The notes beneath the pieces were generated by a model, which did not search any database, was not told the origin of the DNA, and saw only the letters and a list, made by a program, of their open reading frames with translations. Below, in pieces: positions 49,772 to 52,700 of a stretch of 64,000 bases of DNA. Position numbers and translations under genes: made by a program. Positions within the stretch are counted from its first letter, which is position 1. The number at the start of each line of letters is the position of its first letter. Source of the stretch: Dictyostelium discoideum. Taxonomy: Eukaryota. The stretch is taken from contig CM000151.3 in the NCBI GenBank assembly GCA_000004695.1, forward strand, positions 2,144,001-2,208,000. Direction: 5' to 3'.

Positions 49772-52700
49772 ATGGCCAACAGTAATAATAATAACAATAG
49801 TAATAACAACAACAACAATAGTACATTTGGTTACAGTAATAGCGAATGTAGTGGCAGTAGTGGTAACCTATTAATGACTTTAGACCCTGATAATAATCAA
49901 TCTCAATTAGAAGAGATTGAATGTTTAAAATCAATTTATAGAGTAATTATTTAATATTTATATTATTATTATTATTATTATTATTTAATATTAACTCATT
50001 ATATTATTATTATTATTATTATTATTATTATTTTTATTATTATTATTATTATTATTATTATTATTATTATTATTATTATTATTATTATTATTATTATTAT
50101 TATTATTATTATTATTATTATTATTATTATTATTATTATTATTATTATTATTATTATTATTATTATTATTATTATTATTATTATTATTATTAAAATTAGG
50201 ATGAATTTGAAGAATTACCAACAGAAGCAGTTTGTAGAAGGTTTAAAATAACTTTAATTCCTCATCCAACTAATCAATATCAAAATTTTTGTGCTGGTAT
50301 GTGTATATTATTATTATTATTATTATTTTTTATTTTTATTATTATTCAATTTTACTAATGTGAGATATTATTAATAAACAAAACAAAATTTAAAAAAATT
50401 TTAAATTTTTAAAGTTAGATTATATGTAAAATATTCACCAAATTATCCAGTATCATTACCAACGATTGAATTAGAAAAAGTTAGAGGATTATCAGATGAT
50501 TTAATAGGGGAATTAAGTTTTTTATTATCACAGAAGATGGCACCAGGTGAAATTATTATATTCGAATTATGTCAAGCTGTTCAAGAGTTTTTATTACTAT
50601 ATAATAAAGAAACGGTTTCATTACATGAAGAGATGATTAAAAGATTGAATACAAATATCAATAGAGTCAATAGTAGTGATGATATTAATAATAATAATAA
50701 TAATAATAATGATGATGATGATGATAATGATGATTACGATGATTCCGATGACGAAAATAGTGATAGCGATTATGATGATTATGATGATTCTGATGATGAA
50801 AATTCTGATGATGAATTTTATAGTGATGATGAAGATTATAATACTCGTCATCAAATGGGTGATATTGGTTCAAGTGTAAACAAAATAATTAATAGTATTG
50901 ATCATACAATATCACATGGTGGTGGTGTTGGTGTTGGTATTGGTAGTGGTAATGGTTTATTTAGTAAATCATCATCATCATCATCACCAATGATTCCATA
51001 TAATTTTAGTTTTGATTCATTGAATGGTTTTGATCCGGATATTATTTTTGAGGATAGTTTTCAAACACCACTCAAGGGCAGTTCAAGTATTGACTTTGAG
51101 GAAATGAATAATTTAACAAATAGTAATAATAGCAATTCTACTGCTACTACTACCACTACTACTACTACTAATAATAATAATAATAATAATACTAATAATA
51201 ATAATAATAATAATAGTAATAATAATAATAATAATAATAATAATAATAATAATACTAATAATAATACCAATAATAATAATAATAATAATAATAATAATAA
51301 TAATAATAATAATAATAATAATAATAATAATAATAATAATAATAATAATAGTAATAATAATAATAATATAAGTAATAATAAAATTAATAAAATTAATAAT
51401 AATAATAATAATAAAGAATTAATAGATAATAATAATAATAATAAAGATAAAGAAAATGATTTAATAAATGATACAATACCAAAGATAAAATGGAAAAAAG
51501 GAAGTTGTATTGAAAGGAAATCTAATTATTCAGTTTATAGGGGTGTAGATGAAGATACTGATAGAAAATTAATTTGTAAGATCGTAAATTTAAATATTGA
51601 TGATAGATCATCATCCTCTTTAACATCATTGTCGAATAGTAATAATAATAATAGCAATAATAATAACAATAACAATAACAATAATAACAATAATAATAAT
51701 AATAATAATAATAATAATAATAATAATAATTTATCAATTGATGTGGTTGAATTAAAAAAAAGATTAATTGAAAAGGTGAAAATGATTCAAAAAGAGATAG
51801 AGTCTATGAAATATTTAGGTAATCCTTATATTATCAAATATTTAGGTACAAACTTTCAAGAAGGTCAAAATACACTTTATATTTTTCAAGAATATAATTC
51901 AACATTAACATTACAACAAAAGATACTTTCAAATGGTATTGGTTTTGAAGAGAGTCAAGTAAAGAAATTCACTTACCAACTATTATTAGGTTTATTATAT
52001 TTACACTCTCAACATATACCTCATAGAGATTTCAAATCTCATAATATCTTTTTCAACCAATCAACTTCAAAAATGTTATTATCAAATTATGGTGGCAGAA
52101 ATATTAAAATTTTTGATCATTTTGAAAAATTAAATTCTTTAAAAAATTTAAATTCTTGGATATCAAGTACAAATAATAGTATTAATAATATCAATAATAT
52201 CAATAATAATAATAATAATAATAATAACAATATCAATACTACTACTACACAAAATCAAATTAATAATGAAATTGATAGACGTGAAGATATTATTAATTTA
52301 GGTATAGTTGTTTTAGAAATGTTATGTGGTAGTGATTTAGCAAATAATCAAACTGTTTTAATTTATTTAGCACAATTGAATTTATTGAATAATCAACAAC
52401 AGAATCAAAATTTTATACAACCACCACCTTTACAATACCAATTACAACAACAGTATGATTTAATTAAAGAGATTGAACAAAAGACTCATCCATCATCGCC
52501 CATTTCAAATAATGCAAAGGATTTCTTATCACTTTGTTTCACGATCAATGGTAATGGTAGCACTAATGATAGCTTAGAGGCTGGTATCCTATTGAAACAT
52601 CCTTTCTTGGCTTCAAATTCAAATTCAACTCCACCACCTTCAAATTTCTTAAATTTTACAAATAATATTAAATTTTTGGATCAAAGATCCGCTGCTACTC

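Follow-up and report, generated by a model that had tools for sequence, protein, structure and literature searches.

Three-exon structure of ifkA, a GCN2-type eIF2-alpha kinase gene of Dictyostelium discoideum with a microsatellite-filled first intron

We analysed a 64-kb stretch of Dictyostelium discoideum DNA (contig CM000151.3, positions 2,144,001 to 2,208,000; hereafter the window), and all coordinates given below count from its first base. The window has a GC content of 22.9%, long A and T runs between its genes and Asn-rich coding repeats, a composition that carries the signature of D. discoideum. Upstream of the gene described here lies a plus-strand, lipase-like gene (Pfam Abhydro_lipase, 1.1e-17) with an intron at 47386-47527 (142 nt, 3.5% GC, GTATGT...TTTTAG), with a perfect (ATA)33 array over 70% of its length; simple ORF calling runs through this intron and reads it as poly-Ile. 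The downstream gene contains an intron at 58608-58730 (123 nt, 3.3% GC, GTAATT...AATTAG) that consists largely of (AAT)14 plus imperfect copies (20 copies according to TRF), and is located just upstream of a ComC-like ORF at 59163-62699. This ORF (plus strand, 2.7e-86) and two others on the minus strand (35871-37460, 7.5e-45; 40747-42060, 1.1e-28) encode a ComC supersandwich domain (PF22933) together with EGF-like repeats, and the three form a local cluster of a surface-protein family expanded in Dictyostelium. A further minus-strand ORF at 16250-18043, with a domain of the uracil-DNA-glycosylase superfamily (PF03167, 1.3e-12), includes a TTA array at 16275-16707 (433 nt, 144 copies, 79% match) that would code for a very long Asn-rich tract.

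The gene of interest is dominated by a plus-strand ORF at 50537-57313, which begins MAPGEII and encodes 2258 amino acids, in agreement with the start and length given for it in a first-pass annotation made from the letters alone. That annotation had described the product as a GCN2-like kinase. Pfam searches identified a kinase domain split over three stretches (Pkinase, 1.5e-73) along with tRNA-synt_His (2.9e-18), HGTP_anticodon2 (7.7e-16) and HGTP_anticodon (2.4e-09), the HisRS-like region being C-terminal to the kinase. The best homologues of the ORF product in public protein collections are GCN2/EIF2AK4 proteins, which have the same domain set. Based on the Pkinase, HisRS-like and anticodon-binding-like domains and on these homologues, we assign the ORF to the GCN2-type eIF2-alpha kinases, as the earlier call had it. 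In a collection that evidently lacks Dictyostelium proteins, the C-terminal 764 aa found homologues with a best identity of 56%, and a search with the 179-aa N-terminus returned nothing. An exact look-up of the 2258-aa and 2388-aa proteins among 15 billion proteins yielded no entry, Dictyostelium proteins being evidently absent there as well.

Joining 49772-49942, 50200-50296 and 50415-57313 produces a coding sequence of 7167 nt that is open over 2388 aa and has a terminal stop only; Met 50537 then becomes residue 131 of the spliced protein. We consider it very probable that 49772-57313 is the three-exon ifkA gene of D. discoideum, a GCN2-type eIF2-alpha kinase gene translated into 2388 aa from the ATG at 49772. 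The gene was reportedly first described by Fang et al. in 2003 (BMC Dev Biol 3:3).

Upstream of this ATG, an AT-rich intergenic or promoter region and 5' leader (49254-49771, plus strand) has 12.9% GC and long A and T runs, and ifkA transcription would begin within it. The presumed promoter (49264-49477) features A39 at 49271-49309, A74 with few interruptions at 49368-49441 and T25 at 49453-49477. An in-frame TAA at 49751-49753 lies 21 nt upstream of the ATG. Exon 1 (49772-49942; 171 nt, 57 codons, 28.7% GC) encodes the start Met, an Asn/Ser-rich low-complexity head and then helix 1 of an RWD domain (..QSQLEEIECLKSIYR). It is followed by intron 1 (49943-50199; 257 nt, phase 0, GTAATT...ATTAG), with 98.4% A+T and 1.6% GC, and by exon 2 (50200-50296; 97 nt, 28.9% GC), which codes for DEFEELPTEAVCRRFKITLIPHPTNQYQNFCA plus the first base of a Val codon and provides RWD strands 1-2. 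The alignment of the exon 2 product with the matching segment of GCN2 homologues needs just one gap, of one residue. Intron 2 (50297-50414; 118 nt, phase 1, GTATGT...TAAAG, 9.3% GC) contains a short (TAT)14 array at 50306-50346 and a TACTAAT element.

Exon 3 has a GC content of 27.3%, and its 5' end, before the first in-frame ATG (50415-50536), encodes RWD strands 3-4, the YPVSLP loop and helix 2; this coding piece would be lost to an ORF-only model starting at Met 50537. The rest of the exon (50537-57313), corresponding to the 2258-aa ORF, encodes in order RWD helix 3, acidic and poly-Asn linkers, an N-terminal kinase-like domain, an eIF2-alpha kinase domain with a large insert, and the HisRS-like and anticodon-binding-like region. 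An in-frame AAT array at 51169-51444 (276 nt, 91 copies, 88% match) codes for a poly-Asn tract of about 90 residues, located after the RWD domain and before the first kinase-like domain, and is longer than the ATT array of intron 1.

Both ifkA introns have a GT donor and an AG acceptor, and their removal restores the frame. Retention introduces a stop after 3 codons in the case of intron 1 and after 19 codons in the case of intron 2. The open frame of exon 3 itself starts after a TAA at 50402-50404 and leaves 44 codons open upstream of Met 50537. Typical Dictyostelium introns have less than 15% GC and a length of 60-250 nt (PMC1420674), a range that intron 1 exceeds by 7 nt and within which intron 2 falls. 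To compare possible junctions, we enumerated 139 frame-preserving GT-AG combinations, some of them single-intron models lacking exon 2, and ranked them by their score against an HMM for which four GCN2 N-termini from outside the dictyostelids were the sole input. The junctions proposed in the first-pass annotation ranked first of the 139 with 122.2 bits, the next best combination reached 114.9 bits, and the ORF from Met 50537 scored 25.6 bits. Alternative splice combinations, among them those without exon 2, were rejected, as every one fell below 122.2 bits. Together with the open reading frame over 2388 aa and a GC content that rises and falls between exons and introns in the expected way, this ranking upholds the three-exon model. 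Judging by sequence logic, homology and the published protein model discussed below, the junctions 49942/50200 and 50296/50415 are likely to be used in vivo, and both GT-AG introns would be removed from the transcript by the spliceosome. When metagenome contigs were scanned for exact matches to the spliced exon 1-exon 2 junction and to exon 2, neither a transcript nor a second allele came up.

The first-pass annotation had asked for a Pfam RWD search on the joined N-terminus and had held that the domain is recovered only once the two mini-exons are spliced on. The search returned a full-length match to PF05773 on the spliced N-terminus (71.5 bits against a cut-off of 22.8, E 8e-20), covering profile positions 2-112 of 112 at residues 44-149. 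Profile positions 2-15 are contributed by exon 1 and 16-49 by exon 2, and the score decreases stepwise as exons are withheld: 47.8 bits for exons 2 and 3 without exon 1 (profile 16-112), 38.1 bits for the open frame of exon 3 alone (profile 50-112), and no match in a Pfam RWD search from Met 131 onward. Full recovery hence requires all three exons. The further statement that the mini-exons encode the RWD domain is correct for helix 1 and strands 1-2, approximately the first 40%, whereas strands 3-4, the YPxxxP loop and helices 2-3 reside in exon 3.

Structural evidence points in the same direction. Among solved structures, the top sequence matches were the mouse GCN2 RWD domain 1ukx (4e-12) and human GCN2 (8t7t, 7e2k), followed by other RWD proteins. 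For the spliced N-terminus, AlphaFold gives a model that reaches a pLDDT of at least 84 over residues 41-150 and adopts an alpha-beta4-alpha-alpha topology (H39-59, E60-63, E71-76, E89-95, E106-113, H117-130 and H138-151). Its best match in the PDB is the human GCN2 RWD domain 7e2m_A (TM 0.80, target-normalised; rmsd 2.0 A), and the top 11 hits of this comparison are RWD domains, with E2 enzymes ranking after them. The RWD family is defined by a YPxxxP loop motif, and its fold is related to the E2/UBC fold. In the spliced protein this motif reads YPVSLP at residues 100-105, and Y100, P101 and P105 are invariant in an alignment with four GCN2 homologues; the N-terminal alignment with homologues spans both junctions with a gap of one residue at most nearby. 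In the model, then, the spliced N-terminus takes on the fold of a GCN2-type RWD domain.

An alternative is that functional IfkA is the 2258-aa product initiated at Met 50537, in which case the RWD-like exons would be relics or belong to a minor isoform and the kinase would have no GCN1-docking domain. Such a start agrees with a long ORF that opens with its own ATG and stands without the upstream exons, and the difference from dictyBase flagged in the 2006 kinome paper may mean that a shorter model was in the database. However, the RWD parts up to helix 2 are all encoded upstream of Met 50537, and the 44 open codons immediately before it encode the segment of highest conservation in the domain, with the invariant YPxxxP residues among them. 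A start at Met 131 would retain only the last RWD helix, as an orphan. Moreover, the mini-exons are open, have exon-like GC and canonical splice sites, and form a contiguous extension of the RWD domain, whereas relic exons are not expected to stay intact under a strong A/T mutation bias. We therefore regard translation of the functional protein from Met 50537 as very unlikely, and favour the 2388-aa protein.

The three-exon model of ifkA is already known, as the RWD-bearing N-terminus was published in 2006. IfkA is listed as DDB0185218e in Table S2 of the kinome study by Goldberg et al. (PLoS Genet 2:e38; PMC1420674), where its model was built by inspection. This protein begins MANSNNNNNSNNNNNNSTFGYSNSECSGSSGNLLMTLDPDNNQSQLEEIECLKSIYRDEFEELPTEAVCRRFKITLIPHPTNQYQNFCAVRLYVKYSPNYPVSLPTIELEKVRG..., its junctions read YR|DEFEEL and NFCA|VRLYVKY, and it is identical to our spliced model over the approximately 400 residues compared, which include both junctions and the lengths of the poly-Asn tracts. 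Figure S1 of the study gives kinase-domain starts of 449 and 1024 for IfkA (PMC1420674), and the same kinase-domain peptides occur at 449 and 1024 in the 2388-aa model; RWD also appears in the motif legend of Figure S3 (PMC1420674). The suffix 'e' denotes that the sequence was edited relative to what dictyBase had in 2006, the place of the difference not being stated (PMC1420674). It is plausible that the dictyBase model of that time was truncated at its N-terminus. The concern of the first-pass annotation, that the RWD domain would go unannotated in any model starting at 50537, is right insofar as no RWD match is obtained from Met 131, and it may have held for the database then, but the correct N-terminus has been in print since 2006.

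Compared with known systems, IfkA is the same gene product as the published DDB0185218e, which starts MANSNNNNNSNN..., has the same junctions and poly-Asn tracts and shows no detected difference over about 400 residues; beyond these, identity is suggested by the matching domain coordinates. Its RWD domain best matches, in both sequence and fold, those of yeast and mammalian GCN2/EIF2AK4 (1UKX, 7E2K/7E2M, 2YZ0; full-length 8T7T), and it shares with them the domain order RWD, kinase-like, eIF2-alpha kinase with an insert, and HisRS-like. Unlike GCN2/EIF2AK4, however, IfkA contains poly-Asn, acidic and Ser/Thr-rich low-complexity inserts, and it is much longer (2388 aa versus about 1650). The kinome paper classes IfkA-a as a partial kinase domain and IfkA-b as PEK/GCN2, and predicts the N-terminal kinase domain to be active rather than a pseudokinase (PMC1420674).

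The published model of IfkB in Table S2 and Dataset S1 of the same paper (PMC1420674) starts MIGKGGFGVV..., equivalent to residue 1029 of IfkA. Over the part compared the two proteins are almost identical, with one V/A difference and a kinase-domain tree distance of 0.0001, and the IfkB model may stem from a recent duplicate and lack part of its N-terminus.

Translation from ATG 49772 would yield a 2388-aa IfkA whose RWD domain spans residues of about 44-150, and which has the standard GCN2 layout beyond it. The RWD/GI domain of yeast and mammalian GCN2 binds GCN1. By analogy with the family, the RWD domain of IfkA would dock this activator. The literature treats both IfkA and IfkB as established eIF2-alpha kinases (PMC3293825, with reference to Fang et al. 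2003), and IfkA is reported to phosphorylate eIF2-alpha in early development and to influence when aggregation takes place (PMC3293825 and PMC13063481, both with reference to Fang 2003).

The second feature of the locus is the ATT/TAT microsatellite on the plus strand inside intron 1 (49961-50192; TRF period 3, 76.7 copies, 93% matches, 3% indels). It covers 232 of the 257 intron bases (90%) and consists of perfect blocks of 8, 10 and 53 units, with TTTAATATTAACTCATTATA and a TT insertion as separators. The only bases of the intron other than A or T are the donor G, the acceptor G, C49995 and C49997. An earlier description of this intron as essentially pure (ATT)75 was accurate in that the array fills nearly all of it, but slightly generous given the three interrupted blocks. 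The window contains 12 perfect A/T triplet runs of at least 10 units, of which the 53-unit block is the longest; those elsewhere have 38 units or fewer. Intron 1 is like other Dictyostelium introns in its GT-AG ends and its GC content below 15%, and the two neighbouring introns at 47386-47527 and 58608-58730 share its build, A/T-only triplet repeats being dominant in the non-coding DNA of the window. It differs in holding the longest run of the window and in its 7 nt above the typical maximum. Overall it looks like a regular Dictyostelium intron of rather large size.

Estimates of the share of simple repeats in the D. discoideum genome run from 11% (PMC9234386, citing Eichinger 2005) to 14.3% (PMC7466956), most of them trinucleotide repeats. 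Since arrays of the same kind occur in the neighbouring, unrelated genes and simple repeats account for 11-14% of the genome, neutral slippage is the default reading: the ATT array is most simply explained by slippage in a genome biased towards A/T, as one of the usual A/T-only microsatellites of Dictyostelium, and would just be spliced out. Length polymorphism of the array between strains is plausible.

The first-pass annotation had also put the array forward as a hypervariable element within an essential splice unit, and hence as a candidate for effects on splicing efficiency. A functional version of this idea would have its length tune ifkA splicing or intron retention, and with it IfkA dosage, in a manner that varies between strains. 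The length could, for example, set the distance between a branch site near AACTCAT (49993-49999), the one element of the intron that contains C, and the 3' splice site. In keeping with such a role, the array takes up 90% of an intron whose length is near the usual maximum, the internal C bases lie approximately 200 nt upstream of the acceptor with the 53-unit block in between, retention of intron 1 ends the frame at once, and repeat slippage does occur in D. discoideum (PMC7466956). However, an effect on splicing is pure conjecture, introns of the two flanking genes hold similar A/T triplet arrays in a genome rich in simple repeats, and early studies estimated low microsatellite mutation rates in this species (PMC9234386, a review). 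We judge a regulatory function of the array length to be extremely unlikely. That AACTCAT serves as the branch site of intron 1 is speculative.

A broader proposition is that the 53-unit block varies by strain and so alters ifkA splicing and, separately, that the reference proteome keeps an RWD-less 2258-aa model; we hold this to be quite unlikely. If true, variation in ATT length would translate into heritable variation in the dose of the GCN2-type kinase that times aggregation. Neutral slippage remains our reading of the array. The repeat-filled intron reflects a general property of the genome rather than one specific to this gene, and the finding at ifkA matters little beyond annotation hygiene. 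Its practical value lies only in finding out which model, the 2388-aa one or another, stands in the reference annotation today. The IfkA entry in the database may be 2258 aa long. Should a database still hold this shorter protein, domain searches would miss the GCN1-docking domain of GCN2 kinases, and such an entry could skew comparative statements on starvation sensing in Dictyostelium.
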